Positions 16,794 through 54,650 of a stretch of 64,000 bases of DNA are shown here, in pieces. Where the stretch lies: positions 62,001 to 126,000 of the IMG/VR virus record IMGVR_UViG_3300013121_000015; one strand, 5' to 3'. Below the pieces are notes generated by a model. It worked only from the letters and a program-made list of their open reading frames with translations, did not search any database and was not told where the DNA came from. Both the position numbers and the translations under genes were made by a program. The DNA is from an uncultured virus (IMG/VR IMGVR_UViG_3300013121_000015) (Duplodnaviria > Heunggongvirae > Uroviricota > Caudoviricetes). Within the stretch, counting starts at the first letter, position 1. The number at the start of each line of letters is the position of its first letter.

Positions 16794-16802
16794 TCTCTCA
16801 TC

Positions 16803-16845: not shown

Positions 16846-16936
16846 TCCATGGGCGGCGGCGATGATGCCTCCGCTCAGACCCCCGCCAGCCGTCGCGCTG
16901 GCACAGTGGAGCCGACGCGCTCCCAGGAGTCACACC

Positions 16937-17422: not shown

Positions 17423-17476
17423 ACGCAAGCCCGTAGATGGGCCCACCGGTGGCTACCCAGCCACCAGGAGCAAGTC

Positions 17477-17911: not shown

Positions 17912-18582
17912 TCCCCCTCACGATCACCGCCCACCTGCACACGCCGCCCGTGATCCGGGAGCCGGTCCTGTTCGACGGCGTGCTGATGGGCGGGCTCGGG
18001 GCCAGCATGGGTGCGGCCGATCCCTCGGGCTGGGTAGACCCGGATCTCGTCTACGCCAAGCGCCTGCCTCTGGAGCACGTGGGCAGGGCTGGCCTCTGGT
18101 GGTACGCCGCGTCCCAGGCCACGCCCCACGGGCCCGAGCAGACCCACTACACCCACCGCCGGATGCCCGCCGAGCACTACCAGCGCTGGACACGGGAGCG
18201 CTCCACCCTGTTCGCGACCGGGCCGGACAAGGGCTTGCGGATCCGGCTGTTCTCCCGGCCGTCTATGCTGGCGATCCGCTGGACGTGTGTGGGCAACCCG
18301 GTGGAGATCGCCCGCCTGCTCACCTTCGTGCCTGGGGTAGGGCACCGGGTCAACCACGGCTGGGGACAGGTGGCCCGCTGGGAGGTGACCGAGGGCGGAC
18401 CAGGGCCAGGAGCCTACGCGACCGACGTGCGGCTGCGCCACCTGCCCGTGTCCTGCGCACCCAGGATGCCCGACCTGGAGGCTACCAGCGTGGCCCCCAA
18501 GCGCCTGCGCCCGCCGTACTGGGGGCGGGTCAACACGGTCGAGTGCGTCTTCGTGCCGGCCCACTTCGAGGTCCAGCCATGA
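17908..18582 (+). CDS. csf3: Type IV CRISPR Csf3 (Cas5 RAMP)
   Basis: PLTITAHL..LFDGVL, LPL..WWYAAS, TGPDK, WTCVGNPVEIARLL..VGHRVNHGWGQVARWEV, LRHLP, RPPYW. Confidence 0.85.
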   Translation: MIPLTITAHLHTPPVIREPVLFDGVLMGGLGASMGAADPSGWVDPDLVYAKRLPLEHVGRAGLWWYAASQATPHGPEQTHYTHRRMPAEHYQRWTRERSTLFATGPDKGLRIRLFSRPSMLAIRWTCVGNPVEIARLLTFVPGVGHRVNHGWGQVARWEVTEGGPGPGAYATDVRLRHLPVSCAPRMPDLEATSVAPKRLRPPYWGRVNTVECVFVPAHFEVQP

Positions 18583-19244
18583 CCGTCTACCGCGCGACCC
18601 GACACGACCTGACCCAGGTCCTCATCCGGGGCGACCTGGAGGACCCGGCCACGCTGGACCTGTACCAGCGCCACCTGCCCGAGCGCGTCCACGCGGTCTA
18701 CTCGGACCCGCCCTGGAACCCGGGCAACGCCACCTACTGGCGGACCCATGCGAAGGACGGCCGCGCCGCGTCCTACAACAGGTTCCTGGACGGCTGGTGC
18801 GCGGTGGCGACGCTGTGCCAGGAGCGCGGTGCCGTGGACGTGCTGGTCGAGCAGAGCGCGAACGTGGCGCACCAGGACTTGCTGCGGGCCGCGATCCGCC
18901 GGTGTCCAGGCTGGCGCCTGCGCGAGCGGGCCGTCTACGCGGTCCAGTACGGGAGCGGCGCCAAGATGCTCCCCAACGCGCTGCTGCACTTCGGAGGGCC
19001 CGACCTGACCACGGACCCGACCGGGATGTACGGCGAGCCCATGACGCTGCGGGCGGTCTTCGGGACCACCCCGACACCCGGTCACGTGCTGGTAGACCCC
19101 TGCACCGGCAAGGGCATGACGAGCCGCACGGCGCACGCCCTGGGCCTGCACTTCGTCGGGAGTGAGCTGAACCCCGAGCGACTGGGCGTGACGCTCAAGT
19201 GGCTGGAGCGCCAGGGGTACGCCGTGGCCGAAGTCGAGTCGTGA
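18579..19244 (+). CDS. Amino-methyltransferase-like protein (beta order)
   Basis: YSDPPWN (motif IV) precedes VDPCTGKG (motif I) and FVGSELNP. Confidence 0.75.
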   Translation: MTVYRATRHDLTQVLIRGDLEDPATLDLYQRHLPERVHAVYSDPPWNPGNATYWRTHAKDGRAASYNRFLDGWCAVATLCQERGAVDVLVEQSANVAHQDLLRAAIRRCPGWRLRERAVYAVQYGSGAKMLPNALLHFGGPDLTTDPTGMYGEPMTLRAVFGTTPTPGHVLVDPCTGKGMTSRTAHALGLHFVGSELNPERLGVTLKWLERQGYAVAEVES

Positions 19245-20149
19245 TCCTCCTGGGCCTGTCCCCGGCCGAGCGCGCTGAGGCCATCCGGACCCGAGCCGCG
19301 GAGGTCCAGGCCAGCAAGGTCTACGTGATCAGCCCGGCCCGGTTCCACCTCCCCGGGCACGTCGAGATGACCAACCCGGAGACGGAGTGCGACGGGCGGC
19401 CCGGCCTGTTCATCGACTGGTCCAGCGTGATCCTGTACCGGTACTACTACCGGCTGCTCCAGGAGATCGGCCCGGACACGCTCCTGGTGGTCAACGAGGG
19501 GCTGAGGACGCAGAACCGGCACGACCTGGCCTACAACTGCATCCGGGCCTACGCGAACCGGACGCCCCATGTCCTGGTCCTGTCCACCTTCCCGATCATC
19601 GACCAACCCGACGACGTGATGACGCTGATCGACTGGGTGACCCGCTCCAAGTGGAAGCGCGACCCCTTCAACCCGTCCATGCTGGCCGAGGTCGAGGTGC
19701 GCGGGCGCGTGCCGGTTCCCACCTTCGAGGCGGTCCACGTCGAGGTAGACCAGCGCACCCGGGACGCCTACGCGGTCGAGAAGGCGAAGGTGCTGGCGGA
19801 GCTACGGGCAGACGGCGACAAGGACCCGCACGTCTTGCCCCGGGCCCTGCACCTCGTCTCCGGGAAGGCAAAGCTGACCCACGTCCGGCCCGGCGTGTCC
19901 TACCTGGGCCGCAACAACCGCTTCAAGGTCGAGGGCCTGGAGACGTGGCGCGACGTGGCTACGGAGGGCGAGCGGACCGCCTTCGAGCTCCCCCACAACC
20001 TGATCGACGTGGCCGACGCGCTGGCCATGACCCGCGCCACCCACGTCCCCGTGCTGGTCGCCGACACCAAGGCCGACCGCTGGTACTTCGAGCGCGTCCA
20101 GGGCTGGGCCGGGAGGGTGCGGGATGCCGCGTCAGCACTTCACCGGTGA
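19241..20149 (+). CDS. Hypothetical protein, possibly a degenerate SF2-helicase-like fold
   Basis: LLVVNE at a Walker-B-like position; coupled to flanking genes. Confidence 0.55.
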   Translation: MILLGLSPAERAEAIRTRAAEVQASKVYVISPARFHLPGHVEMTNPETECDGRPGLFIDWSSVILYRYYYRLLQEIGPDTLLVVNEGLRTQNRHDLAYNCIRAYANRTPHVLVLSTFPIIDQPDDVMTLIDWVTRSKWKRDPFNPSMLAEVEVRGRVPVPTFEAVHVEVDQRTRDAYAVEKAKVLAELRADGDKDPHVLPRALHLVSGKAKLTHVRPGVSYLGRNNRFKVEGLETWRDVATEGERTAFELPHNLIDVADALAMTRATHVPVLVADTKADRWYFERVQGWAGRVRDAASALHR

Positions 20150-21254
20150 GACGGTACTGGAGGCCGCACGCCGCCGGGTAAGCTTCATCCTGGACACGTT
20201 CGGCGAGAAGCTGATCGTCAGCGTGTCCGGGGGCAAGGACAGCACCGTACTGGCCCACCTCGCGCTGGTCGAGGCCGCCCGTCGGGGGCTCCGGATCGGG
20301 GTTCACTTGTTGGACGAGGAGGTCATGTACCAGTCCAGCGTGGATCAGGTGGACTACCTGATGAGCCTGTTCCCCGAGCACACCCGCCGGCTGTGGCTCC
20401 AGGTCCCGTTCAGGCTCACGAACGCGACCAGCCTGACGGAAGGGCAACTGGACGCCTGGGAGCCCGGGTCCCACAAGGTCTGGATGCGGCCCAAGCGGCC
20501 GGACGCGATCCAGCACCCGCCCTGGACGCCAGCCCAGGTGAGCGTCCGGGACAAGCACAAGGGCTTCGGGTTCTACGACGTGATCGACACGTTCGCCCGC
20601 TGCTACCCCGGCCACGCCTTCCTGGTCGGCCTACGCGCCGCGGGGGAGAGCCCCAACCGCTGGCGAGCGGTCACCAAGAACCCGGTCGAGATCGGGGGCC
20701 AGCGCGTCTACTGGGGCACAGCCAAGGGCGAGACGTTCACGCTGTACCCGATCTACGACTGGAACGCGCATGACGTGTGGAAGTACATCGCGACCGAGGG
20801 GATCCGGTACTCCCGCATCTACGACTTCCAGCACCGGCTCGGGTACCCGCTGTCCGAGCGCCGGGTGTCCAGCCTGACCCACGAGCGGTCCTTCAAGGCG
20901 CTGGCCGACCTGCCCGCCTTCGAGCCCAAGACCTACGCGCGGCTGCTCAAGCGGATCAAGGGGATCGCGCTGGCCCAGGAGACGGCGAAGTCGGCCAAGC
21001 TCTTCGCGTGCCGGAAGTTGCCCAAAGGCTACCGGTCCTGGCGCACGTACCGGGACTTCCTGCTGGCTACCCACCCGGACCAGTCCAAGGCGGACATCTT
21101 CCGGGCCCGGTTCGCGCGCCACTTGGACAACGAGTTCGTGGCCCGCCAGCAGGTGCGCCAGCTCGTCTTGAACGACTACGAGAACAACCTGCCCGTGGAC
21201 TCCAAACCGGACCCGCGCGACGCGCTGATCGCCTACTACGACGAGGTGCTGTGA
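20124..21254 (+). CDS. ibrA: IbrA-like / DUF3440-type PAPS reductase-fold protein
   Basis: TVLEAARRRVSFI, VSVSGGKDSTVL, LDEE, LVGLRA.ESPNRW, YPIYDW..DVWKY, YSRIYD. Confidence 0.8.
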   Translation: MPRQHFTGETVLEAARRRVSFILDTFGEKLIVSVSGGKDSTVLAHLALVEAARRGLRIGVHLLDEEVMYQSSVDQVDYLMSLFPEHTRRLWLQVPFRLTNATSLTEGQLDAWEPGSHKVWMRPKRPDAIQHPPWTPAQVSVRDKHKGFGFYDVIDTFARCYPGHAFLVGLRAAGESPNRWRAVTKNPVEIGGQRVYWGTAKGETFTLYPIYDWNAHDVWKYIATEGIRYSRIYDFQHRLGYPLSERRVSSLTHERSFKALADLPAFEPKTYARLLKRIKGIALAQETAKSAKLFACRKLPKGYRSWRTYRDFLLATHPDQSKADIFRARFARHLDNEFVARQQVRQLVLNDYENNLPVDSKPDPRDALIAYYDEVL

Positions 21255-21850: not shown

Positions 21851-21855
21851 CGGAC

Positions 21856-21906
21856 GGATTATTTTCTATTCGCTATTGCGCGTCTGAATGTAGCATAGTA
21901 ATAGTT
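21856..21906 (+). promoter_or_regulatory. Sigma70-like promoter (TTGCGC-N17-TAATAG)
   Basis: AT-rich island; -35-like hexamer at 21876; shares GGATTATTTTCT with the 16803 site. Confidence 0.6.
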
Positions 21907-21946
21907 AGTCATGGGGCGGCGATGGAGCGGCCCCAAGGAGAGCCCG

Positions 21947-22247: not shown

Positions 22248-22559
22248 ATGCCCCCCGGCCGCCCCCGCACCCTCCTGTCTGTTCCGTGCGACATCCACGG
22301 GGACGGACCCTGCCCGTCTCCGAACGGCTGCAAGAACCGCCGGGCGCGCGCCGGGCTCCCGGTCGAGCGTCCCCTGGGCAAGCGCGAGGCGCGGTCCCTC
22401 GCCGCCGGACTGATCGTGAGCTGGACGCGGGGCACGCTGGACGCGGGCGCTGAGATCACGGGGCGGGACGGGGCCGTGCTGGACCCGGAGAGCCGGGAGT
22501 GGGAGCTGGTCCGGGACGCCATCGACCTGCTCCTGGCGGAGATGGACGCGCGGTGCTGA
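22248..22559 (+). CDS. Hypothetical protein
   Basis: Coupled to neighbours; GRPR N-terminus, Cys cluster. Confidence 0.5.
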   Translation: MPPGRPRTLLSVPCDIHGDGPCPSPNGCKNRRARAGLPVERPLGKREARSLAAGLIVSWTRGTLDAGAEITGRDGAVLDPESREWELVRDAIDLLLAEMDARC

Positions 22560-23398
22560 CCCGCTGGCGCACCCTCTCCGCCCACCTGCCCCCGGACGCC
22601 ATCCCGGACCGGCCCGACTTCGGAGCCCGCTACCCCTGGCGAGACGTGGCCCTGCACGCGCGGTCGGTAGAGCTGGGCCGGCGGGTGGAGCAGGCCCGGC
22701 GAGCGCTCGACCTGGCCCTGTCCCTGGACGTGCCCGGGGGCTGGCGCCTGAGCCTGTCCGGTGGCAAGGACTCGTCCGCGCTGGCGGCCCTGTGCGCGGG
22801 CCAGCCCCTCCAAGCCATGTCGGTCAAGGACGACCTGGACTACCCCGGCGAGCGCGAGGCCCTACACCAGCTCGTCCAGCGCACCGGCCACGCGCTGACC
22901 ATCCTGACCCCGCCGGTGTCCCTGCTGGCGTACCTCCAGACCACCCGGCCCAGTCTGGTCGAGGACCTGCACGGGCGCACGGCCGACCTGTCCGCGCGCT
23001 GGTTCTACGGGCTCCTGGAACAGCACCGGACCGAGCATGGCTACGGGGGCGTGCTCCTGGGTCTGCGCGCCCAGGAGAGCCGCGGACGGGCCATGAACAG
23101 GGCCATGCGCGGCTACCTCTACCAGCGCGCCTCGGACGGGCTGCACGTGGCCCAGCCCCTCGCCGACTGGTCCGCGCTGGACGTACATGCGTACCTCTGG
23201 CGGGAGCAGGTCCCGGTCTTGCCGGTCTACCTGTGCGTGGACCCTGGCATGGACGCGCTCGGGATCCGCAAGTCTTGGTGGGTCTGCGGTGGCGGCCCGG
23301 CCAGGAACGGCAGTCACTACGGCTGGCTGCGCCGGTGGTGGCCCGCGTGCTGGCGGCTGGCGGTCGAGATCGACCCGGAGGTCGGACGGCTGAGCTGA
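22553..23398 (+). CDS. cysH: CysH-like PAPS reductase-fold protein (type IV-B accessory type)
   Basis: LSLSGGKDSSAL, LLGLRAQESRGR, PLADWSALDVHAYL..LPVY; downstream of the csf genes. Confidence 0.8.
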   Translation: MLTRWRTLSAHLPPDAIPDRPDFGARYPWRDVALHARSVELGRRVEQARRALDLALSLDVPGGWRLSLSGGKDSSALAALCAGQPLQAMSVKDDLDYPGEREALHQLVQRTGHALTILTPPVSLLAYLQTTRPSLVEDLHGRTADLSARWFYGLLEQHRTEHGYGGVLLGLRAQESRGRAMNRAMRGYLYQRASDGLHVAQPLADWSALDVHAYLWREQVPVLPVYLCVDPGMDALGIRKSWWVCGGGPARNGSHYGWLRRWWPACWRLAVEIDPEVGRLS

Positions 23399-33540: not shown

Positions 33541-33758
33541 CCAGCCCGGACCTCCAGCACGAGTCGCGCGGGGACTTCGCGCAGTCCATCCGTGCCCTGA
33601 CCCAGCTCACCGACGCCGAGGTCTGTACCTGCGCAGCGCCGGACCGGGAGCAGGACGGGCTGATCGTGGCGTGCCTGCGCTGCCACAAGATCGCCCGGCC
33701 GGAGACGCTGGGGCTGCTGCGCCTGGGGTACCGGCTGGCGCCCGAGGGCGAGGCGTAG
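33537..33758 (+). CDS. Small Cys-containing hypothetical protein
   Basis: GGAGG SD, GTGA overlap. Confidence 0.5.
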   Translation: MTSPDLQHESRGDFAQSIRALTQLTDAEVCTCAAPDREQDGLIVACLRCHKIARPETLGLLRLGYRLAPEGEA

Positions 33759-34069
33759 GGGCTACCTCTCGCAGAACACCACCAGGGAGGAGGTGCAGCC
33801 CTCCAGTCGCGGAGGGACACGGGGGAGATGGTTCTCTTGCCGAGCTGTCCGGTTCCTCACCCGCCCCGTGGCCGCCCAGCGCGGTTAGCATCGGCTGAGG
33901 TGACAGCGCCCCTCCACATGGACCTCGCAGGGGCTGAGGGCTCTCGGGTGCGACCGGCAAGAGCCCAACGAGGTCCATCCTTTCTACCACGCGCCCCCGG
34001 CTGCTCCAGGTGAGCACGTCCGGGGGCGCGGTCGTTGTGGGGGCTACCTCACAACCCGGAGGTGTCCCG

Positions 34070-34708
34070 ATGTCCGATCCCGCCCAGCCCGTCACCCTGT
34101 CCATGTTCTGGCCCCTGCTCCTGTTCGCGAGCCAGGGCAGTAGCAGGAACGTCGCCGCCGCGATGGATGCGGTCTGGCAGCGCCGGGGCGGGACGCACGC
34201 TGACCTGACCTCTGACGAGGTGGCCGAGGAACTGGCCCGGACGCACTTCCCCAGCGGGACCACGCTCCGGAACGTGGGCTGGTACATCGTGCGCGACCAG
34301 GACGGCCACGACGCCGGCTGGGCCACGGACTGCGACGTCTACGAGACCTTCCTGGAGCTGACGGCGGGTCTGGGGCAGTCTGGCCCCCTGTCCCCGACCG
34401 ACCCGATCCACGTCGCGCAGGTGGCGCGGGTCCTGGCCCTGTCGCTCCGGGTCACGGTCCACGTCGAGGGGCCGACGGTAAAGGTCGAGGCCGGGGACTG
34501 CACGCGCGACGGCGTCAAGGAGTACGGCGTCTGGGTCAGGATCTGTCGGATGCGCTCGACCGACGGCCCCGTATCCGCCGGCATGTTCTTCCCGGGCGTG
34601 GCCGTCATAGATGCAGACGTCGGCGCGCTCCTGTTCCGCTGGCTCGTGGACCGGCACGCCGAGGTGGTCCAGGCCCTGGAGGCGACGGAGACGGACCCGG
34701 AGGGCTGA
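34070..34708 (+). CDS. Hypothetical protein
   Basis: Motif plus SD. Confidence 0.65.
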   Translation: MSDPAQPVTLSMFWPLLLFASQGSSRNVAAAMDAVWQRRGGTHADLTSDEVAEELARTHFPSGTTLRNVGWYIVRDQDGHDAGWATDCDVYETFLELTAGLGQSGPLSPTDPIHVAQVARVLALSLRVTVHVEGPTVKVEAGDCTRDGVKEYGVWVRICRMRSTDGPVSAGMFFPGVAVIDADVGALLFRWLVDRHAEVVQALEATETDPEG

Positions 34709-34815
34709 GTTCGCCCACGCCGGGATCCGCGCCCCGACCCCCCTGGACTGGCCCTGACGGCTGACTCCGGGGGGTTCGTGCTTCCGGGGCTACCTGTCCG
34801 GAGGAGGTGTTCCCC

Positions 34816-35475
34816 ATGTCCAGTTCCACCCCGCTCCTGAACCCCGCCGAGGTGATCGGTCGCCGCTGGGTGATCGACGTGCCCGTGCCCAAGCCCCACA
34901 AGCGGTACCTGCACGTCGTCAGCGGGCCGACGTGGATGCACAACTCCTGGTGCTACTGGCTCTCCGGGAGCAACGACGGCGCCGGGCCCTTCATCCCGGA
35001 AGCCACGCTCCAGCGCGCCATGGCTGAGGGCGTGGAGATCCCGCCCGGCACGGACCCGCTGGACTACACCTGCCGGGAGTGCGGGGAGGTCTCCCACCCC
35101 AGCTACGCCTACAACGACCAGATCGGCGCGGTGTTGCGCGAGCGTGGGCTGTGCTACTTGGACGACTTCTGGGCCAAGGCTCACGCCGACTACCTGGCCG
35201 GCAAGCGGCTGGTTGTGGGCGGGCAGAGCTACACCATCGCGCCCGAGCGCGCGTCCGACCCCGCGAGCTGCAAGGGCCACGGCGGGCGCCGCTTCCGCAT
35301 CCAGTACCCGGACGGCCGCGTGGTCGAGTCCACGAACGTCTGGAGCCAGGGCCCGATCCCGGAGCGGTGGCGCGCCCGCATGGCGGACACGGCCGTCTTC
35401 CTCCCGGACGAGCCCTCGGCGGGGAAGGAGTTCCGGTACGCCGGATTCGAGCGGTGGGAGATGAGGCGCGGGTGA
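34816..35475 (+). CDS. Hypothetical phage protein
   Basis: Motif plus SD; KGHGGRRFRI..DGRVVESTNVWSQG.IP. Confidence 0.65.
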   Translation: MSSSTPLLNPAEVIGRRWVIDVPVPKPHKRYLHVVSGPTWMHNSWCYWLSGSNDGAGPFIPEATLQRAMAEGVEIPPGTDPLDYTCRECGEVSHPSYAYNDQIGAVLRERGLCYLDDFWAKAHADYLAGKRLVVGGQSYTIAPERASDPASCKGHGGRRFRIQYPDGRVVESTNVWSQGPIPERWRARMADTAVFLPDEPSAGKEFRYAGFERWEMRRG

Positions 35476-35507
35476 GGGCTACCTCCCCAGACAAGTAGGA
35501 GATCCCC

Positions 35508-36215
35508 ATGCGACCGCATGCCGTCGTCACCGCCCAGGGCCCGCGCCCGTCGCACCAGGACCGAGCCTGGACGGACGGCGCCACCCGCCTGATCGTCGCC
35601 GACGGGATGGGCGGACACGAGTCCGGGGAGGTCGCGGCCCAGACCGCCCTTGACTACGCGCAGCGGGCGACCTTCGCGGAGATCCGGGACGGGGTCGTGA
35701 CGGCGGTGGAGGTCGCGGCGGGACGCAACGCGGGCACGACGCTGTCCGTGGCGATGCTGGACCGGCGCGAGCTGTCCTGGCTCCACGCCGGAGACAGCGC
35801 GCTCTGGCTCGTGACCGGGAAGGGACGGACCGCGCAGATCCGGCGCCTCACGGCGGACCAGTCCAGGTGGGGGAACGAGCGCGCGCGGGAACCAGACAGC
35901 CCGAAGCGCCCGTCCCGCGAGTGCAAGTCCATCCTGGTCTCGTGCGTCATGGCGCCGTCCTTCCGCCACGGCATCGGTCCCGTCACCTGGGACACCGGCT
36001 CTGTCACCCTTCCCGCCGGTAACGCGTGGCTGTTCGGGACCACCGACGGCTTCCACGAGGCGTTCGAGGACGAGTCTGGGGACGTGGACCACGCGCGCCT
36101 GCTGGCGGGTCTGCGGGACGTCGTGCGGTGCTCCGTGGCGCACGCCCAGGTCTACGTGGATGGATGCGCCCAGCAGACGCACGACAACGCGACCGTCGCG
36201 TGGTGGAGGCTGTAG
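35508..36215 (+). CDS. PP2C-family Ser/Thr protein phosphatase
   Basis: GPRPSHQD, IVADGMGGHESGEVAA, GTTL, HAGDS, TTDGF, HDNAT. Confidence 0.9.
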   Translation: MRPHAVVTAQGPRPSHQDRAWTDGATRLIVADGMGGHESGEVAAQTALDYAQRATFAEIRDGVVTAVEVAAGRNAGTTLSVAMLDRRELSWLHAGDSALWLVTGKGRTAQIRRLTADQSRWGNERAREPDSPKRPSRECKSILVSCVMAPSFRHGIGPVTWDTGSVTLPAGNAWLFGTTDGFHEAFEDESGDVDHARLLAGLRDVVRCSVAHAQVYVDGCAQQTHDNATVAWWRL

Positions 36216-46799: not shown

Positions 46800-47150
46800 A
46801 TGGACCTCGCGGACGTGCTGCGAAGTGAGCTGTCGGGCGTCCGAGTCTCCACCGAATCGGAGATCCAGGCGTGGATCGCGCGGATCCTGACCGCGCACCG
46901 CATCGCGCACGTCCGCGAGGGCACGCTGGGCGACGTCGGCCGACCGGACTTCCTGGTCGGTCGGGTCGCCGTCGAGGTGAAGATCAAGGGGTCGCGCACG
47001 GACCTGATGCGACAGGTCCAGCGGTACGCGAGCCACCCGGACGTGTCCGAGGTGCTGGTCGTCACGACGCGACTGGCCCACCGGCTCCCGGCGACGCTGG
47101 CAGCCAAGCCGGTGACGGTCGTGTGCGTCACGGCGTTCGGGGTGGTCTGA
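46800..47150 (+). CDS. PD-(D/E)XK nuclease-like protein
   Basis: E.EIQ, GRPDFLV..VAVEVK, QVQRY. Confidence 0.75.
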   Translation: MDLADVLRSELSGVRVSTESEIQAWIARILTAHRIAHVREGTLGDVGRPDFLVGRVAVEVKIKGSRTDLMRQVQRYASHPDVSEVLVVTTRLAHRLPATLAAKPVTVVCVTAFGVV

Positions 47151-47410
47151 TGACAGAGGAGGAGCGCGCGCGACGCTTAGCCTACCAGATGGACCGCGTC
47201 CGCCGTGCCAGAACCATCCGCGTTCCGTGCGGTCAATGCGGCGTGTGGACCCGTCTACCGGACCTCTACCGGTGCTACCAGTGCGGCTTCTGGCTCTGCT
47301 TGACGTGCGGAGCCGAGCACTGGCCCGAGGCGGCGACGAAGCGGGACCACGCCTTCATCGCGGTCGCCGAGCAGACCCTGGACATGGAGCGTCCCGAAGA
47401 GACGTCCTGA
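47150..47410 (+). CDS. Small Zn-finger protein
   Basis: CGQC, CYQC, CLTCGAEH. Confidence 0.6.
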   Translation: MTEEERARRLAYQMDRVRRARTIRVPCGQCGVWTRLPDLYRCYQCGFWLCLTCGAEHWPEAATKRDHAFIAVAEQTLDMERPEETS

Positions 47411-47442
47411 CCGCCAGGGCTACCTCTGTCTAGGATCTGCCC

Positions 47443-47865
47443 GTGCCCTACACCGTGTCAGTCCAGATTGTTCCCAACCACTGGCGCGTCGCGCGTGTCT
47501 TCAAGCCAGTCAAGTTCCTGGATCACGCCATCTCGCCAGGAACTCGACTCACCCTGAACGACCTTGCTGTATGGGTGGAAGTCCCCCTGCTGCCCTACGT
47601 CTGCGCGTCCGGGGTCGATGGGTGCGCCGGCTGGGCGCTCGTCGGCGAGCGGCTGGTGGGCTTCGTCCGGGAGGGCGACCTGGCCGAGATGGTCCAGCAC
47701 GACCTCCGGGCGCGCCTGGACCTGTTGCTGGTCGGGTTGGAGCAGCACGGGCAAGCGGGCCTCGACCATGTCCGCGAGGTCGAGCGGAGCGACCGAGAAC
47801 AAGGCCAGCGGCTGCTGGAGCAGATGGGGCTGCGCGCTCTGGCGACCGTGGCGCATCGGGTCTGA
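47443..47865 (+). CDS. Hypothetical protein
   Basis: Follows motif 47418. Confidence 0.55.
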   Translation: MPYTVSVQIVPNHWRVARVFKPVKFLDHAISPGTRLTLNDLAVWVEVPLLPYVCASGVDGCAGWALVGERLVGFVREGDLAEMVQHDLRARLDLLLVGLEQHGQAGLDHVREVERSDREQGQRLLEQMGLRALATVAHRV

Positions 47866-47890
47866 GGGCTACCTCCGTCCAGGAGGGCGT

Positions 47891-49567
47891 ATGGGATCGC
47901 TCAAGCTGGTCGGCAAGGAGTGGGTGGTCGAGGCGGACCCGCACGTCACGATGATGCTGCGGCGGATCTTCCCGCGCGTCCAGAAGGGCCAGCACGGCGC
48001 GATCCGGCTCACGTCCACCGACGAGGTGTGTCGGAACCTCGTCTGGTTCCTGGACCGGTTCGGGCTGGACCTGAGCGAAGAGGACCGGTTCCTGCTGCGC
48101 GCGAAGGCGGACGCTCACCGGTCCAGGGAGCGGCAGGTCGCGGCGCTGCTGACGGGCAAGACCGACCCGCGCGAGATCCCGCTGGCGCTGCCGTTGCGCG
48201 ACTATCAGCGGCTGGCGGTCGAGATGGCCTACCAGCTACGCGGGCTGCTGCTGGGCGATCAGGTGGGTCTCGGAAAGACGGGCGTGTACATCGGACTCGC
48301 CTCCCTCCCCCGGACCCGCCCCGTCGTCTGGGTCACGATGACGCACCTCCAGACCCAGGCCCAGCGCGAGATCCAGCGGTTCGCGCCGGGGCTCCGGTCC
48401 GTGATCGTGCGCCGGGCAAAGGCGTACCCGCTCGGCTTCGAGGCGGGTGGCGACCCGCCGGACGTCGTGATCCTCAACTACGCGAAGCTGGCCGGGTGGG
48501 CGGACTACGTCGCGCAGTTCGTCCGCCTGCTGGTGTTCGACGAGGCCCAGGAGCTCCGACACGACGACTCCGCCCGCTACCGCGCCGCGCTGCACGTCCG
48601 AGAGCGCGCCATGTGGGCGATCCTCGGGACCGGTACCCCCGTCTACAACTACGGGGGCGAAATCTTCAACGTCGTCGAGATCGCGCGGCCGGGTGCGCTG
48701 GGGTCCTGGGACGAGTTCGTGACTGCCTGGGCGCAAGAGCGGGACCAGAAGGGACGCGCCCTGGTCCACGACCCGCGCGCTCTGGGGACGCACCTGCGCG
48801 CCGAGGGGCTGATGCTACGCCGGACCCGGCGGGACGTGGGGCGCGAGCTCCCGGCGCTGTTCCGGACCATCCACGTCGTAGACGCCGACCCGGACGCGCT
48901 GCGCCACGCGACCGGCAACGCGGCGGAGCTCGCGCGAATCCTGCTGGCCGAGTCCGGGACGGGGCTCCAGAAGCTCCAGGCGGCCCAGGACCTCGACCGG
49001 ATCATGCGGCAGGCGACCGGGATCGCCAAGGCCGCCTACGTGGTCGAGTTCGTGCGGCTGCTGCTGGAGTCCGGCGAGGACCGCGTGGTGGTCTTCGCGT
49101 GGCACCACGCCGTCTACGACCTGCTGGAAGACGGGCTCCAGCCCTTCGGCGTCGTGCGGTACACCGGCAAGGAGTCGCCGACCCAGAAGGACATGGCGCT
49201 GCGACGGTTCAAGCTGGACCCGGACCAGCCGTCCGCCGCGCGCGTGTTGCTCCTGTCCCTCCGAGCGGGCGCCGGGATCGACGGGCTCCAGTTCGTGTGC
49301 CAGACCGGGGTGTTCGCGGAGCTCGACTGGTCGCCCAAGGTTCACGAGCAGGATGAAGGACGGATTTGCCGCGACGGACAGGACCAGCCGACGAACTTCT
49401 ACTACCTCGTCGCTGGCACCGGATCGGACCCCGTCGTGATGGACGTGCTCCAGATCAAGACCGGGCAGGCGGACGGGATCGTGGACCCGGACCAGGACGC
49501 GGTCGGCGTCCAGGTGGACCCTGACAAGATCCGCCGGCTGGCCGAGGCGGTGCTGAGCCGGGGGTAG
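47891..49567 (+). CDS. SNF2-family helicase
   Basis: LRDYQ, GDQVGLGKT, VFDEAQEL, TGTPVYN, GAGIDGLQ, ELDWSP..HEQDEGRICRDGQ. Confidence 0.92.
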   Translation: MGSLKLVGKEWVVEADPHVTMMLRRIFPRVQKGQHGAIRLTSTDEVCRNLVWFLDRFGLDLSEEDRFLLRAKADAHRSRERQVAALLTGKTDPREIPLALPLRDYQRLAVEMAYQLRGLLLGDQVGLGKTGVYIGLASLPRTRPVVWVTMTHLQTQAQREIQRFAPGLRSVIVRRAKAYPLGFEAGGDPPDVVILNYAKLAGWADYVAQFVRLLVFDEAQELRHDDSARYRAALHVRERAMWAILGTGTPVYNYGGEIFNVVEIARPGALGSWDEFVTAWAQERDQKGRALVHDPRALGTHLRAEGLMLRRTRRDVGRELPALFRTIHVVDADPDALRHATGNAAELARILLAESGTGLQKLQAAQDLDRIMRQATGIAKAAYVVEFVRLLLESGEDRVVVFAWHHAVYDLLEDGLQPFGVVRYTGKESPTQKDMALRRFKLDPDQPSAARVLLLSLRAGAGIDGLQFVCQTGVFAELDWSPKVHEQDEGRICRDGQDQPTNFYYLVAGTGSDPVVMDVLQIKTGQADGIVDPDQDAVGVQVDPDKIRRLAEAVLSRG

Positions 49568-49772
49568 GGGGAGCGGTCGGTGCGGCTACCTCCCCGTCCG
49601 GAGGTGTCGATGCTCTCCTGTCTCACCGTCGCTCAGACCTGCTTCTGCCCCGCCTGCCAGCACGCCCGTCGGGTCGCCACCCAGCAGCAGGTCCGGGGGT
49701 GCCCCGCTGGACCCCGCGCGCAGAATTCTTCTCACACGTCGGCGTCTCGCGCCATGGAGAGGTGAGGACGCC

Positions 49773-49991
49773 ATGGACCGACCGACGCTACCCGATCCCG
49801 ACCAGTGGGGCCCCTACCTGCGCGCCGTCTACCTGGAGCACGGCGCCGGGCGGGAGTTCGCCGACGCGCTCCGGGACGCGGGGCTGATCTTTCGCAACCA
49901 GCACGGTCAGCGGGGTCGGCTCAGTTGCTGGGCGCTGGAGGGCGTGGACCCGGGGCCGCCGACGTGTACTTGCGCGTCCTGCTGGTCGTGA
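49773..49991 (+). CDS. Hypothetical protein
   Basis: GAGG SD. Confidence 0.5.
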   Translation: MDRPTLPDPDQWGPYLRAVYLEHGAGREFADALRDAGLIFRNQHGQRGRLSCWALEGVDPGPPTCTCASCWS

Positions 49992-50062
49992 GTCGGGCGG
50001 AAGTGACGCGCATCACTGGCGCACGGTTGCGCGCGCTGATAATGTCGGGGCTGGAGGTGTCC

Positions 50063-51436
50063 ATGGGCCGCAAGCCCCTCCCCCCTGAGCAGCGCAAACC
50101 TCGCCGGTCCGGTCCGTCCGGGCGTGCTCCCGCACCTACCCCAGAGCGTGCCGCCGAGCAGCAGCGTCGCCTCCACGCCCTGCGCGAGCAGGTCGGCGCG
50201 GAGCTCCACCGTCAGCGCCGCGCGTTCTGGCCCGCCAGCGAGCCCGCCCCCGTGACGGAGCTGGCCCGGGTGGTGGACCGTAGCCAGTCCACGCTGAGCG
50301 CATGGGGCGCCGGGGAGGCCCCCGCGCGGGCCGTCATGCGGGACGAGACCCTGAGCGCCATCGAGGCCGAGGTCGCGTCCTGGCTCGCCGCGCAGCGTGG
50401 GGGCGCGACGGCTTGCCCGGCCCTGGGCGTGGGTGCGACGTCGCTGGGCGCCCACCTCGCGGCCTACGGGCTGCTGCGCATGGTCTCGCAGGTCTGCCCG
50501 ACCGCCAGGATCTCCTGGTCCACGGAGACCGGAGACCTACTCGTCCAGGACGCGCCCGCGTGGCGACTGGCCCTGCTGGAGCGGTGGGCACCGACGCCCA
50601 TCCTCTCCCCCTGGAACGGGGGCTCGGGGTTCTGGCCGAAGGACTCGGGGCCTGCGGCCACGCTCGCGCAGGTCGAGGCGAGCGCGGACGCGCGCTGGGC
50701 GCCCTACCGGCTCGCGGTCCAGGTGGCGCGCCTGGTCGTCGAGATGTCCGGGCTCGACGGCCAGCCCGCAGGGGATCCAGCCAGCAAGGCGCGGCTGGTC
50801 CAGACGTTGCGGCAGGAGGCGACGCCCGACCTCCGAGCCTGGATGGACGCCGTGATCGTGCCCGTCCAGGACGACGTGGGGCACGACCTCCTCGTCTACC
50901 CGCCGGTTGCTGGCACGGGTAACAACGAATACCGCCTGGAGTACAGCGCCGGGCACCGGGCGCGGCTCCTGGATCTCATGAGCGCGCCGCCCAGCACCGC
51001 CCTGGACGCGCTCGACGCCGCGCTCGTCGGCGGACCGCACCAGCAGGCGTGTTCGGGCGCTGGTCCGTGGTGGCCCGACGGGGTCGCACCGAGCGCGTGG
51101 TCGGCGGTGATGGCCCTGGAGGGCATCTGCACGCTGGCCACGGACGCGCGGTTCCGGCTCGCCGTGAACCGGCCCCTACCGCCCTGGACCGCCGAGGGTG
51201 AGGACGGTCCCGAGCTGTGGCTGCCCCGGTGGTCGCGCCCGATGTCGCTCGTCGAGTGGCGGGCGCTCGTGACAGCGGGCCCGCCCCGGGTCGGGGCTAA
51301 CCATCGGCCCGCCCGGACGTCCCTGGACTGGGCGCGGGCCTGCGCGAGCGTGGCGGCGCCGCTCCAGGAGGGGATGGGTTTTACCCGCTACCGGTACGTG
51401 GACAGCCGTGGAGGCGGACTTTGGGCCGCCGTGTAA
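50063..51436 (+). CDS. csx17: HTH fused to truncated Csx17 (Cas8u2, type I-G large subunit)
   Basis: TELARVVDRSQSTLSAW HTH; LGAHLAAYGLLRMVSQ..ARISW, WAPTPILSPWNGGSGFWPKD, WMDAVIV, YPPVAGTGNN.YRLEYS, VMALEG, ELWLPRWSRP. Confidence 0.8.
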   Translation: MGRKPLPPEQRKPRRSGPSGRAPAPTPERAAEQQRRLHALREQVGAELHRQRRAFWPASEPAPVTELARVVDRSQSTLSAWGAGEAPARAVMRDETLSAIEAEVASWLAAQRGGATACPALGVGATSLGAHLAAYGLLRMVSQVCPTARISWSTETGDLLVQDAPAWRLALLERWAPTPILSPWNGGSGFWPKDSGPAATLAQVEASADARWAPYRLAVQVARLVVEMSGLDGQPAGDPASKARLVQTLRQEATPDLRAWMDAVIVPVQDDVGHDLLVYPPVAGTGNNEYRLEYSAGHRARLLDLMSAPPSTALDALDAALVGGPHQQACSGAGPWWPDGVAPSAWSAVMALEGICTLATDARFRLAVNRPLPPWTAEGEDGPELWLPRWSRPMSLVEWRALVTAGPPRVGANHRPARTSLDWARACASVAAPLQEGMGFTRYRYVDSRGGGLWAAV

Positions 51437-51486
51437 ATATTTTCGCGCGCGCCTATTGCGTATTTCTGCGCGCGCATATAAGGTAG
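51434..51486 (+). promoter_or_regulatory. Sigma70-like promoter TTGCGT-N17-TAAGGT with GCGCGCGC inverted arms around the -35
   Basis: -35 at 51456, -10 at 51479; followed by a GGGGGC/GCCCCC hairpin and AAGGAG SD. Confidence 0.7.
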
Positions 51487-51524
51487 TGACATCAGGGGGC
51501 GCTGAGGCCCCCAAGGAGAATCCG

Positions 51525-51722
51525 ATGACCCGCACCGAGACCCGCACCGACGCCCTCCACATCCTGCGCGCCTCCAGCCTCGCCGACCTCTTCCCCGGTG
51601 CCGTCGTCCGCGAGGCGGACGAGACCGTCTCCGACGAGGACCGCGACGAGGTGGACGCCGCCGCCCGCTCCCTCGGCCTCGTCGTCGAGGAGTCTGAGGA
51701 CGGCGAGTGGGTCATCGGCTGA
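51525..51722 (+). CDS. Small, highly acidic protein
   Basis: 65 aa, D/E-rich; first gene after the promoter. Confidence 0.7.
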   Translation: MTRTETRTDALHILRASSLADLFPGAVVREADETVSDEDRDEVDAAARSLGLVVEESEDGEWVIG

Positions 51723-51852
51723 CCGGTCGCGTCCGAGGCCCTCTCGGGCACCACGACCCCCACGCCAGCCGCCTTCTCGCGGCGGGGGTTGACGACGCGG
51801 ATACACCGCGTCGCACCGTGAAAAGACACGGATAGCGCTGGCCGTGAGTTCG

Positions 51853-52431
51853 ATGACCATCCGTAAACTGATTGAGTCCGCTCCTGACCCCGTGCGAGCC
51901 GTCGGCGCCCGGCTCTGTTCGCCCACAGACGGTGACGCGCAGCTGTGTTTTCGGCTCTGGTTCGAGGCCGCCTTGGCGGCGAGCGAGGCGGCATATGCCG
52001 CCCATCTTTCGGCGCGCAGGTCCATCGAGACTTTGGCGCGGGAGCTGACCCCGCGTCAGCTTGCCATCGTGACCGCCGACCGGGCGGCCATCGACGAGAA
52101 AACGCCCGCGTTGCTGGCGGCCTTGCGCCGCTTTGGCGATGCGTTGTGGACAGAACGAACCTCCCACCCGATGGTGGTGGAGGCGGCCAAAGAGGTGATG
52201 GACCTGCCGCTGCCGTGGGAGGTCGCCGGTTCGGCGTTCGGCCTGCGCGCCCTCGTGGCACTGATCCACGCCGTCCTATCGCGGCGGGAGCCCCTCCACA
52301 ATCACCAGTGGATGGCACATGACGCCATCCACTACGCCGGACAGCCCGACGCGGCACGGGCGGGGATGTTGGCTGGCCTCGACCGCTTCATGGCGGTCCG
52401 CACGACCCATCCGGCGTGGGCCCACGGCTGA
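51853..52431 (+). CDS. Hypothetical protein
   Basis: ORF in the co-oriented cluster. Confidence 0.6.
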   Translation: MTIRKLIESAPDPVRAVGARLCSPTDGDAQLCFRLWFEAALAASEAAYAAHLSARRSIETLARELTPRQLAIVTADRAAIDEKTPALLAALRRFGDALWTERTSHPMVVEAAKEVMDLPLPWEVAGSAFGLRALVALIHAVLSRREPLHNHQWMAHDAIHYAGQPDAARAGMLAGLDRFMAVRTTHPAWAHG

Positions 52432-52536
52432 CCCCTGCCCCATCTCGGGGCGCCCTGGCCAGGATTGGCCCGAAGACCCACGCCGAAGCCCCAACGGCGC
52501 GGATCACTCTAGGGGCAAGAATCAGGAGCTACTACC

Positions 52537-52911
52537 ATGGAAACTTACGAGTCTTTCGCCATTCGTTGCCTTGACGCCCTGAGCGGCGCCATCTTTCTCC
52601 CTGACACGACCCTGACGGTCGTGGTCGCCTCGATGGTGGAGGGATCGTTCCCTCCACCGGCTGGACAGATCATCTGCTCCGCCCGCAGAGGCAACCTCTT
52701 CTTCTCCTGCTCCGGCTACCCTGCCGAGCGGGCCGAGGACGGCGTTGACCTCGGCTATGCCGAGGCCGAACTCATCGTCTTCGAGGGCGCCCACGAGGCG
52801 CTCGGCTATCTGCTGGAGACCATCGGCGCGGGCCGGGTCTCCACCGTCCTCGGGTCGGTCGAGGATCCCCTGACCGGCTCGGGCTTTCGGGCGCTGTGGG
52901 GGGCGTCATGA
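52537..52911 (+). CDS. Hypothetical protein
   Basis: AGGAG SD. Confidence 0.65.
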   Translation: METYESFAIRCLDALSGAIFLPDTTLTVVVASMVEGSFPPPAGQIICSARRGNLFFSCSGYPAERAEDGVDLGYAEAELIVFEGAHEALGYLLETIGAGRVSTVLGSVEDPLTGSGFRALWGAS

Positions 52912-53153
52912 GGCCCCGTCGGTCGGTTTCTTTGATCGTGTTCGTTGAGGGGCCGCGCCCCGACGGACGGGGTTGGCTGGAGTGTCTTGACGAGCGGTGG
53001 TGGTATCGCCGCTTCCGCACGATGATGCGCGCCGAGGGCGTTATGGCGCATCTTCGCCGTGCTGGCCACCAGGGTGACCTGTGGCGGAAGGTTGAGCAAT
53101 CCACATCGACGGGCGGGATCAGCCGCGTCGAGAAGACGTGGACATGGGGTTGA
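52908..53153 (+). CDS. Hypothetical protein
   Basis: ATGA overlap. Confidence 0.5.
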   Translation: MRPRRSVSLIVFVEGPRPDGRGWLECLDERWWYRRFRTMMRAEGVMAHLRRAGHQGDLWRKVEQSTSTGGISRVEKTWTWG

Positions 53154-53173
53154 CCCTCCGCGCCCTCCGGGGC

Positions 53174-53251
53174 GCCCCGTCGCGGGCTGCTGCTGCCCGC
53201 CTGACGAGCCCTCCAGTCGAGGGCCAGCCCCAGCAGGGGCGAAACGGGAGC
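53174..53251 (+). ncRNA. Type III hammerhead ribozyme
   Basis: CCCGUC^ / stem I GCGGGC-7nt-GCCCGC / CUGACGA / stem II GCCC..GGGC / GAAAC-GGG closing stem III; intergenic. Confidence 0.8.
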
Positions 53252-53255
53252 AAGT

Positions 53256-53516
53256 ATGGACGAACAGACCCTCAGCGCTGTGTACCCGCTCGTGACGTTG
53301 GGGGCGACGCGCACCCCGGATACGCGCAGCCAGTTTGTGATCCACCTCCTGCGCGATCAGGAGTTGATCGCGCAGCGGCTCCAGGACATGCGCCAGCGGG
53401 CGCGAGCGGGGAGAGGCTACCCGAAGGGGTGGCTGGACGATCTACGGGCGGTGCGGGAGCGCCTCGCTGCGGTGGGCTGCCCGGAGGCAGGCCCCCTGCC
53501 GCCCATTGAGGACTGA
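53256..53516 (+). CDS. Hypothetical protein; RBS lies in hammerhead stem III
   Basis: GGGAG SD at 53246-53250. Confidence 0.65.
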   Translation: MDEQTLSAVYPLVTLGATRTPDTRSQFVIHLLRDQELIAQRLQDMRQRARAGRGYPKGWLDDLRAVRERLAAVGCPEAGPLPPIED

Positions 53517-53563
53517 CCCTCATCCCTCGCCCCTGGTGCGCCGGGGGCCTGAGCAGAGGATCA
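53514..53563 (+). repeat. ~50-bp intergenic repeat, copy 1
   Basis: TGACCCTC.....CTCGCCCCTGGTGCGCCGGGGGCCTGAGCAGAGGATCA; copy 2 at 54126. Confidence 0.85.
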
Positions 53564-53630
53564 CACCTCGCCCGTTCGGGCCATGTCCTGATGCGGCCGG
53601 CGATCCGCTTTCCATCGCCAAGGAGATACC

Positions 53631-54128
53631 ATGTCCACACGCCCCGATCCCCAGGCCGCCGGCCTCGCGGCCGTCACCGTCGCGGGCCTCACACCCGCCG
53701 ATCTTGTTCTGCCGTGGGGCGCCACGGCAGAACAGACCCACCGCTGGAAGGCGGCCACAGCCACTTTTTGGGCCGCCTACGACGCGGCCGTCGAAGGCAA
53801 CATCTTCGCCCGGGACACGGACGGGGAGGTGCGCTGGATCCCGGCGGTCTACGTCGGGCAGTCCAGCAAAGGCGCCTGCTACGGTGCCGCCGACTGTTCA
53901 TTCTCTCGTCGGGGCGTGTACCGCCTCGACACCGGGCGGCCCGTGTGGGCCGACGTGGACGCGAACGGGCACATGCTGGAGTACCTGCATGTGCGGATCT
54001 CCGAGGAGGAGATCGTGCCCGAGCCTCTTCCCTCACCGGAGGAGATGGCGGTGGCCTATGCCGCCACCATGCGCGACCGCATGTGGAACACGGCGCAGGC
54101 GCTCGGCGCTGGTGTTGTCATCGCCTGA
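53631..54128 (+). CDS. Hypothetical protein
   Basis: AAGGAG SD. Confidence 0.65.
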   Translation: MSTRPDPQAAGLAAVTVAGLTPADLVLPWGATAEQTHRWKAATATFWAAYDAAVEGNIFARDTDGEVRWIPAVYVGQSSKGACYGAADCSFSRRGVYRLDTGRPVWADVDANGHMLEYLHVRISEEEIVPEPLPSPEEMAVAYAATMRDRMWNTAQALGAGVVIA

Positions 54129-54175
54129 CCCTCGCCTCTCGCCCCTGGTGCGCCGGGGGCCTGAGCAGAGGATCA
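54126..54175 (+). repeat. ~50-bp intergenic repeat, copy 2
   Basis: Near-identical to the 53514 copy. Confidence 0.85.
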
Positions 54176-54239
54176 ACCCGTGCTCGCCGGTCCGCGAGAC
54201 GTGCTGTTCGGCCATGTGAGAGCCGATAGAGGAGCTACG

Positions 54240-54650
54240 ATGTACCCACTCGCAATCCACCCTCTCCTGGTACCAGTCGCCCGTGCCCTGGAGAGCGCCC
54301 ACGGCGTATCGGGCCTCACCGTGGAGCCGATTCGTGAGGTTCGCACGGTCTGGGGCTCGTCGCCCCGGGGCACGCTCAGTGCGGCGAATCTCGTGGGCCC
54401 AGGCGCCCACTACACGGACGGTACGACAGAGAGGGGGTTCGCATCCTTAGTATGCGTCTCCCTCGGCAACGATGCCGAGCCCCGTAGGACGGGGCTGAGC
54501 GGCACGAACAGCGATGGCTCCCTGTGGTGGCAGACGGAGACCACCCACCGGGAGATGGTGGTCGTCGTCCGTGCCCCCGCCGAGGGGTGGACGATGGAGC
54601 AGTTCCAGTCCGCCATTCGGGAGGCCGGCGGGGCGGTCGGCTCGGGCTGA
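54240..54650 (+). CDS. Hypothetical protein
   Basis: GAGGAG SD. Confidence 0.65.
   Translation: MYPLAIHPLLVPVARALESAHGVSGLTVEPIREVRTVWGSSPRGTLSAANLVGPGAHYTDGTTERGFASLVCVSLGNDAEPRRTGLSGTNSDGSLWWQTETTHREMVVVVRAPAEGWTMEQFQSAIREAGGAVGSG

Follow-up and report, generated by a model that had tools for sequence, protein, structure and literature searches.

Described Systems and the Phage Locus

[quoted passage not shown] According to the available portions of PMC9638904, the N-terminal domain of Cas8g extensively contacts Cas7.1, Cas7.2, and the CRISPR RNA (crRNA) there, and the C-terminal domain is Cas11-like and lies toward Cas7.7, along the belly of the complex. The same portions report that Csb2, Cas7, and crRNA assemble without Cas8g, that the co-purification of Cas3 requires Cas8g, and that target recognition and Cas3 holding by the I-G large subunit are open questions. 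A homolog of this subunit was found in the genome of an uncultured virus of the class Caudoviricetes (IMG/VR record IMGVR_UViG_3300013121_000015, 133,178 bp), hereafter called the phage. The whole stretch of DNA that was analysed, bases 62001-126000 of this record (64,000 nt), is called the window, and all positions refer to it unless otherwise stated. The gene is located at 50063..51436 on the plus strand and encodes P0001, a protein of 457 amino acids (aa).

Cascade subunits that have become inhibitors are known from type I-B. In the part of Katz et al. that is available, AcrIB3 is described as homologous to Cas5 and as co-purifying with Cascade, and AcrIB4 as a homolog of the final 90 residues of Cas8b; each inhibits type I-B, blocks the binding of target DNA, and forms a clade of its own. 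The concept of a Cas-derived anti-CRISPR (Acr) is therefore known. The same source counted 358 orphan viral cas genes in IMG/VR, among which the gene described here may or may not be present; its main text, as far as available, makes no mention of I-G or Csx17. In the literature searched, closed supplements excluded, neither a type I-G inhibitor nor an architecture like that of P0001 is described.

P0001 is a conserved phage-borne derivative of Cas8g1/Csx17 that consists of the N-terminal domain only and carries a lineage-specific N-terminal extension, the head. As to its role, the reading we prefer, tentatively and at slightly less than an even chance, is that the gene encodes a putative Cas-derived inhibitor, made by the phage, of the type I-G CRISPR-Cas system of its host. 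The features of the gene are as follows:

50063..51436, plus strand: coding sequence of the 457-aa protein P0001, stop codon included (translation, G+C content at third codon positions, relatives of the same length)
50053..50057, plus strand: ribosome-binding site GGAGG, 5 nt ahead of the ATG at 50063 (direct sequence reading)
50063..50425, plus strand: N-terminal extension, aa 1-121, with the basic arm MGRKPLPPEQRKPRR followed by three predicted helices (aa 27-54, 64-82, and 87-112)
50426..51433, plus strand: homolog of the Cas8g1/Csx17 N-terminal (alpha+beta) domain, aa 122-457, ending just past the last strand of the domain

The original prediction, made from the bare sequence, had placed a 457-aa gene at this position, and the call holds. 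Besides the ATG and the GGAGG site, three independent relatives were likewise called at 457 aa, with identical first and last residues. The long open reading frame (ORF) in this frame, 49805-51436, has a G+C content of 0.77, 0.61, and 0.86 at the first, second, and third codon positions, respectively, which fits coding DNA in a genome of 70% G+C. Its upstream part overlaps a separate 72-aa ORF (49773-49991), and IMG calls the protein of this record at 490 aa.

Homology of the Body to Cas8g1/Csx17

The NCBIfam profile TIGR04113 (Cas8g1/Csx17) matched aa 122-455 of P0001 on profile positions 5-363 of 718, with an E-value (E) of 4.9e-39 and 134.6 bits; a six-frame search gave 126.6 bits. The cut-off of 150 bits was not reached because half of the profile is unmatched. 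The PADLOC model of Cas8g also matched the protein (1.3e-39). [quoted passage not shown] The AlphaFold2 model of full-length P0001, built from a 50-row alignment, had a mean predicted local distance difference test (pLDDT) value of 75.4, with values mostly of 80-93 in the Csx17 part. A Foldseek comparison with Cas8g, proposed as a check in the original prediction, gave 8b2x at E 6.7e-14 over 353 columns as the sole match at E<=0.001, and the N-terminal domain fold of 8b2x was recovered by both phmmer and Foldseek. All three Csx17-type motifs that had drawn attention to the gene are present in P0001 (PTPILSPWNGGSGFWPKD, YPPVAGTGNNEYRLEYS, and ELWLPRWSRP). The match of residues 122-455 to the N-terminal half of Cas8g1/Csx17 is far beyond chance and reflects homology. 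A HMMER search of 1.84 billion representatives found 1090 proteins at E<=0.001, 150 of which were listed; the closest cellular matches to P0001 showed 30-41% identity.

Loss of the C-Terminal Domain and Absence of I-G Partners

The truncation point of P0001 is the domain boundary, and the Cas11-like C-terminal half (about 350 aa) is gone, so that the two-domain architecture of about 700 aa characteristic of Cas8g1/Csx17 is not present. A total of 48 full-length Csx17 homologs were aligned with P0001, and separate profiles were built for the regions before and after the end of P0001. The C-terminal profile (339 positions, from source domains 308-405 aa long) was run with filters off against all stop-to-stop frames of at least 30 aa of the phage, and the best E was 0.041. 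This result argues against a Cas11-like half nearby that is split off, frameshifted, or in decay. It also rules out a split gene with the C-terminal domain in the downstream ORFs, a candidate explanation that was considered; the two ORFs in question have no family match. In 96 of the 98 cellular or metagenomic Csx17 loci both domains are encoded by one ORF, one locus is split, and one (L025) has the N-terminal domain only. The term 'fragment' in the original prediction is apt, but the retained part is a whole domain and not a random piece.

Locus L025 belongs to a metagenome-assembled genome (MAG) of Myxococcota. Its Csx17 (9962-11101 of the locus) is cut to 379 aa with the canonical loops intact, and it is preceded by an 825-aa ORF and followed by a large opposite-strand ORF and then an array of 22 repeats. 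No Csx17 C-terminal domain was detected within this locus, which may be a disrupted I-G locus.

The phage gene also stands alone. The virus record is flanked by direct terminal repeats of 141 bp, and its completeness was estimated by CheckV as 100%. Profiles of Csb2, Csb1, and I-G Cas3 gave no match over the whole 133,178-bp phage; as controls, the Csb1 and Csb2 searches scored over the cut-off in five of five genomes holding a full-length Csx17. No I-G protein was predicted by PADLOC among 125 ORFs (74 in the window and 51 outside it), and no repeat-spacer array was detected by a k-mer scan of the whole phage genome. A comparable scan found 51 arrays in 47 of the 98 reference Csx17 loci, for which DNA of at most 10 kb on each side was fetched. 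The absence of csb1, csb2, cas3, and an array, first noted for the window, extends to the entire 133-kb genome, and P0001 is not a member of an I-G operon.

Conservation of the Gene

The cluster at 90% identity comprises four sequences from four contigs, one being that of the window and the others P0002, P0171, and P0172. Each of these relatives has 457 aa; they are 88-93% identical, without indels, and share the start and the stop. Four runs, from four studies, supplied contigs that were aligned to 49700-51800, and over the gene these variant contigs showed roughly 90-95% identity. A 1398-nt contig covering 50031-51376 had 77 differences and no gap, and three pieces of another run had 42, 34, and 38 differences, also with no gap. 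The only indels within the gene were compensating +1/-1 pairs within 2-5 bases, leaving no net frameshift.

Codon positions were counted for the 40 of 277 differing sites that were listed, chosen by read support, and the count is not a full estimate of the ratio of nonsynonymous to synonymous rates (dN/dS). Among the 21 listed sites within the gene, 14 fall on third codon positions (binomial p 0.002) and 13 are synonymous; among the 15 in the head, 12 fall on third positions (p 0.0003) and three change the residue. This bias argues against a decaying remnant and indicates that the head is translated. Judged from these variants, the gene is maintained and not decaying.

The evidence above bears directly on the view that P0001 is a functionless remnant of a captured cas gene. 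The protein is truncated and solitary, and its score lies under the NCBIfam cut-off (134.6 vs 150 bits), as might be expected of a remnant. Against this, four variants have identical length and ends, variant contigs from four studies contain no net frameshift, the third-position bias includes the extension, and the cut lies exactly at the domain boundary, with no C-terminal debris downstream and a strong ribosome-binding site in front. We consider a remnant highly improbable.

Divergence from Cellular Csx17 and Other Short Forms

The tree of the N-terminal domain included the phage pair and 80 genome loci. The branches separating the phage pair from the 80 cellular Csx17 measured 3.24 and 1.02 substitutions per site, with support of 100 in the Shimodaira-Hasegawa-like approximate likelihood ratio test (SH-aLRT). 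The pair forms its own clade, as AcrIB3 and AcrIB4 do, with the caveats that apply to long branches. The nine rows of Actinomycetota formed one group, and no donor clade was resolved. Among the 98 columns conserved in at least 85% of the 48 cellular Csx17, P0001 keeps 61, including the core motifs, changes 32, and is without five; one of the 98 columns, an alignment artefact, lies within the head. At six positions where all 48 sequences agree, P0001 has another residue (D replaced by E, F by W, R by G, E by A, R by P, and R by S), and two conserved loops of 15 and 10 alignment columns (consensus ..AAIGQFDPGAA and ASGAGYGSAA) are deleted. The kept core motifs, together with the changed invariant residues and the deleted loops, would fit a defective mimic.

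These figures also bear on whether P0001 might be a working large subunit in trans, which would join the host I-G Cascade and alter its choice of protospacer-adjacent motif (PAM) or target instead of simply inactivating it. The 61 kept columns, core motifs included, are consistent with such a role, and in a variant I-G locus the large subunit is short and Cas8-like and has no Cas11-like domain (family NF049934). The six changed invariant residues and the two deleted loops argue otherwise, as do the very long branch and the lack of a match to NF049934; no precedent was found in the literature searched. We give this explanation a slim chance.

Among the shorter Csx17 matches, seven sequences were inspected, and five of them look like fragments or frame-shifted calls. 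P0084 (342 aa) is the N-terminal domain alone, without any appendage, and ends at the alignment position where P0001 ends. P0077 (411 aa, seven contigs) comprises the N-terminal domain and about 70 further residues, which give weak sub-threshold matches to HTH_28, HTH_8, and HTH_23 (E 0.001-0.008) and include a basic tail of the RGRP type. Both exceed the TIGR04113 cut-off, on the N-terminal half only. The phage protein, P0084, and P0077 are mutually 36-37% identical and share derived features: all have EG[ILV]C, and both the IGQF..AGGAN loop and the EGR motif are lost. The three short lineages lie on one side of a branch with an SH-aLRT of 95 (94, 99, and 98 in leave-one-out runs), all of these being joins of long branches, and long-branch attraction is a possible cause of the grouping. 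If the grouping is real, N-domain-only Csx17 with variable DNA-binding-like ends would be a small family and not a one-off.

No short forms were found in viral collections, and P0077 was not found in species genomes. In a metagenome scan with P0002, 18 loci were obtained, which matched from residue 113 onward only, with 26-37% identity; all 18 have the N- and C-terminal domains in one ORF. The same architecture in other phages, which the original prediction had suggested seeking, was not found: tblastn against cultured phages gave no match, and searches of other viral contigs with P0001 and with the short-form alignment found none.

From these results, the initial proposal of a captured subunit that was kept and repurposed is supported by the solo status, the truncation at a domain boundary, the four variants, and the long branch. 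The observations that had been named as contrary to it did not occur: a Csx17 profile match is present, the element has no I-G operon elsewhere, and the gene shows no mark of decay.

The N-Terminal Extension

In the 48 aligned cellular Csx17, 4-34 residues (median 7) precede the position of residue 122. The 121-aa extension of P0001 is confined to the four-member cluster; among the 150 matches listed of the 1090, P0002 was the sole one whose alignment started at residue 1. A search for head-like proteins of 30-250 aa found none, PHROGs contained no homolog of it, and a language-model (Atlas) look-up gave a score of 0.78, which is the noise level. AlphaFold2 predicted three long helices (27-54, 64-82, and 87-112) whether the whole protein or just the head was modelled; the pLDDT of the extension was 46-90, and that of the head-alone run was 69.6. 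The Pfam model HTH_20 matched 20 residues, aa 60-79, with E 0.011 in P0001 and with E 0.0014 and 0.099 in two relatives. Of the basic N-terminus and the helix-turn-helix (HTH) originally seen in this part, the first was confirmed and the second was not, given the sub-threshold HTH_20 matches, the long helices of the AlphaFold2 models, and the lack of an HTH among the Foldseek matches. In our reading of the models, the head is probably a basic arm followed by a helical module.

Neighbouring Genes and Possible Regulation

The following features adjoin the gene:

49773..49991, plus strand: 72-aa ORF upstream, without family match, probably co-transcribed (ORF list, variant sites)
51438..51479, plus strand: two copies of the 19-nt motif TATTTYYGCGCGCGCMTAT, with a GC core flanked by AT, possibly an operator or promoter (repeat search)
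51525..51722, plus strand: 65-aa strongly acidic ORF downstream, with the ribosome-binding site AAGGAG (sequence), without family match

The listed variant sites of the 72-aa ORF fall on 13 third, six first, and no second codon positions, and from this pattern it looks coding in its own frame. Neither this ORF nor the 65-aa one matched a family of NCBIfam or PHROGs. The acidic ORF contains a 12-nt in-frame tandem repeat, GACCCGCACCGA, in two copies, of which one relative has a single copy. Small phage proteins of acidic character often mimic DNA, but nothing points that way for this ORF.

The 19-nt motif pair sits just 3' of the stop codon and ahead of the acidic ORF. The motif has two matches in the window against 0.02 expected, and the pair is unique in the 133-kb genome. 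The contig of one environmental relative diverges at the pair, as at a mosaic boundary. A sigma-70 promoter scan of 47000-54000 found no sites. The AT-rich islands at 16786-16859, 21852-21915, and 51437-51490 share GGATTATTTTCT / TTGCGY-N17-TA-rich elements just 5' of start codons; read by eye and without statistics, these may be a phage promoter type.

The motif pair and the head together raise the question of whether P0001 might be a DNA-binding regulator. Its head would then bind DNA, the Cas8g-derived domain would serve as a protein/RNA-binding or sensor module, and the protein would repress host cas genes or phage genes, for example through the downstream 19-nt pair, and would not poison Cascade. 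Consistent with this are the basic arm, the sub-threshold HTH at aa 60-79 in three of three variants scanned, and the position of the unique repeat pair next to the gene. P0077 carries a weak HTH (HTH_28/HTH_8, E ~1e-3) and a basic tail at the opposite end, which suggests that DNA-binding-like appendages recur, and DNA-binding anti-CRISPRs that silence cas transcription exist according to an abstract (CasPRs). The HTH, however, lies under the Pfam thresholds, was not reproduced by two AlphaFold2 models, and was not found via Foldseek, and the gene's own upstream region has no standout operator-like palindrome. A regulator would moreover have no evident need for a 336-residue Cascade-binding domain, and we regard this role as rather unlikely.

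Phage Genome and Type IV-B Genes

In the left arm of the phage genome, minus-strand genes encode a tape measure protein, an endolysin, a portal protein, the large terminase (TerL), a primase-helicase, and other replication genes. The window has a G+C content of about 70% and is nearly all plus-strand; its genes include an integrase, a sigma factor, DnaN, helicases, methyltransferases, and five genes like those of 3'-phosphoadenosine-5'-phosphosulfate (PAPS) reductase and DndC. PAPS-reductase/DndC-like domains were located in the plus-strand ORFs 3926-5407, 6887-8167, 20124-21254, and 22499-23398, and a fifth family member is among the PHROGs matches. In addition, DUF5131 is found at 2135-3085, several DNA methyltransferases are present, and a queuine-tRNA-ribosyltransferase-like gene lies in the left arm. 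Together, these genes suggest that the phage is heavily equipped for DNA modification or anti-restriction. No tRNA gene was detected in it. Nothing close to it exists among 50,697 cultured phage records, and a distant blastn search with the 6-kb neighbourhood of the gene matched the helicase alone. Two viral contigs have an SNF2 helicase with 44-47% identity to that of the phage; Csx17 is missing from both, and they are too distant to date the gain of the gene.

The window also contains a type IV-B-like cluster:

13809-15071, plus strand: Csf1-like gene (only aa 301-418 match, E 4e-15)
15789-16793, plus strand: Csf2 (E 2e-38)
17881-18582, plus strand: Csf3 (E 1e-30)
20124-21254, plus strand: CysH-like PAPS reductase (library search)

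The cluster (13809-21254) further includes a 186-aa ORF without assignment at the expected place of cas11 and a phage zinc-finger ORF. Outside the window, an 849-aa helicase (genome positions 33645-36194, minus strand; L003:15645-18194) matched the PADLOC type IV-A DinG model with E 2.3e-76. This DinG-like helicase is about 40 kb from the Csf genes, and an IV-B-like set together with a CasDinG-like helicase on one phage is unusual.

With Csf1-like, Csf2, and Csf3 proteins recognized by PADLOC and CysH-like genes on the same genome, P0001 might be an accessory or alternative large subunit for the array-less type IV-B complex of the phage, for example one capturing host I-G crRNAs or Cas3. Type IV-A3 gained a Cas8-like substitute for Csf1, as stated in the accessible part of PMC7038947, and that part and the one of PMC8175902 suggest that IV-B may neutralise crRNAs (a possible crRNA sponge). 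The gene is nevertheless about 31 kb away from the IV-B cluster, and that cluster has a Csf1-like gene of its own; mixing of Cas8g with Csf-type backbones is not known. The contigs of the relatives, at most 6.3 kb long, are too short for co-occurrence to be visible, and the two distant phage relatives have no Csx17. We find this partnership improbable.

The IV-B context, combined with the crRNA-sponge idea in the accessible parts of PMC7038947 and PMC8175902, makes an actinobacterial host and an anti-CRISPR theme plausible, and the co-residence of P0001 with these genes bears on the old suggestion that IV-B antagonises host CRISPR. One could also conceive of a composite counter-CRISPR machine, in which the Cas8g-derived domain would recognise Cas7-crRNA of the host I-G system, or Cas3, and hand crRNAs or the nuclease to the Csf backbone, with the head anchoring the assembly on DNA. 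If true, it would be the first functional bridge between type I and type IV and would provide a role for type IV-B; we think it quite improbable.

Putative Function

The preferred reading, a Cas-derived anti-CRISPR against type I-G, can be outlined as follows. Of the roles offered in the original prediction, it corresponds to the dominant-negative anti-CRISPR, which has direct precedent in AcrIB3 and AcrIB4 and is in keeping with the missing Cas11-like domain. An ancestor would have taken the N-terminal alpha+beta domain of Cas8g1/Csx17, and the phage copy would have shed the Cas11-like C-terminal domain, altered invariant residues, and dropped the two conserved loops. The protein, made in the infected or lysogenic cell, would occupy the Cas8g place on the Cas7-crRNA backbone; alternatively, it may bind Cas3, whose joining of the complex needs Cas8g. 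The outcome would be a Cascade without the Cas11-like belly, unable to complete target binding or Cas3-dependent cleavage. The head would be an added module, most likely DNA-binding, serving self-regulation or the tethering of the poisoned complex, or else protein-binding.

A metagenomic protein, P0141 (1602 aa), is a natural fusion of a Cas3 helicase and HD domain, reaching to about residue 800, with a full Csx17, and it places Cas3 at the Csx17 N-terminus. From this fusion and the contacts given in the available portions of PMC9638904, we infer that the phage N-domain might compete for the Cas8g site or for Cas3. Abstracts describe AcrIF24, AcrIIA15, and AcrIE10 as anti-CRISPRs that also repress their own promoter via a DNA-binding domain, and AcrIF9, likewise according to an abstract, makes Cascade bind DNA non-specifically. 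Self-repression or non-specific DNA tethering would fit the head, if it is DNA-binding.

A number of points weigh against an anti-CRISPR function. The seven neighbouring ORFs (49773-54650) matched nothing in Pfam, PADLOC, or PHROGs, and three of them had no match in NCBIfam either. No adjoining gene matched a known acr, anti-defence, or anti-CRISPR-associated (Aca) family in these general libraries, none of which is Acr-dedicated. No clue to the host was obtained from TerL (just 22% identical to Bacillus phages), from the portal protein and Csf2 (no match in the cultured phage search), or from DnaN (about 30% identical across many phyla). The spacers of the 51 arrays from 47 of the 98 Csx17 loci did not match the phage, and the presence of type I-G in the host is presumed. 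As for the head, the HTH_20 matches reach 13-19 bits compared with a gathering cut-off of 27, and Foldseek with the head model gave generic helical bundles alone (E>=0.24) and no HTH fold; an HTH there is possible but unproven. With 457 aa, P0001 is large for an anti-CRISPR. P0077 and P0084, both on contigs of at most 6.6 kb, may be ordinary cas-operon genes.

The members of the NCBIfam family NF049934, named the 'I-G Cas3-extension family', count among these points as well, being Cas8-like proteins of about 300 aa without a Cas11-like domain. In a MAG of Streptosporangiaceae (L186, contig C29), genes for Csb1-like, Csb2, Cas3, and NF049934 proteins are followed by an array. This locus indicates that a large subunit lacking a Cas11-like domain can be part of an apparently complete locus, and truncation alone is thus no proof that P0001 is defective. 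The L186 genome has a canonical Csx17 locus in addition. Membership of P0001 in NF049934 was considered and rejected, with no profile match in the phage at E<=1 and a best E of 0.048 for BLASTP to a member.

If the anti-CRISPR reading is true, the protein would be a natural, conserved, domain-sized mimic of Cas8g and could serve as a probe of the backbone-binding versus Cas3-binding halves, revealing the contribution of the Cas11-like half. It might also provide an off-switch for I-G genome-editing tools. The cas-to-anti-CRISPR idea would be extended to type I-G, to the large subunit's N-terminal domain, and to a head-fused architecture.

Comparison with Known Systems

P0001 resembles Cas8g1/Csx17 in the sequence and predicted fold of the N-terminal domain and in the core motifs; it differs in the missing Cas11-like half, the 121-aa head, the absence of a cas operon, and the very long branch. 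P0084 and P0077 share with it the domain boundary and the derived features, whereas their appendage is absent or situated at the opposite end, respectively. The NF049934 proteins are likewise short and Cas8-like without a Cas11-like domain, but they are encoded inside cas loci, beside Cas3.

Among described inhibitors, AcrIF24, AcrIIA15, and AcrIE10 are comparable in that P0001 may likewise combine a DNA-binding head with an inhibitor body, and the phage carries an integrase. In contrast to them, the body of P0001 is a Cas homolog and not a novel fold, and its HTH is only putative. The closest parallel in origin is with AcrIB3 and AcrIB4, since P0001, too, is a diverged Cascade-subunit homolog encoded by a virus, outside a cas locus, as theirs are by mobile genetic elements; with AcrIB4 it also shares the derivation from one domain of a large subunit. 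P0001 is distinguished from both by the I-G subtype, by its origin from the N-terminal and not the C-terminal helical domain, by its much larger size, and by the added head.

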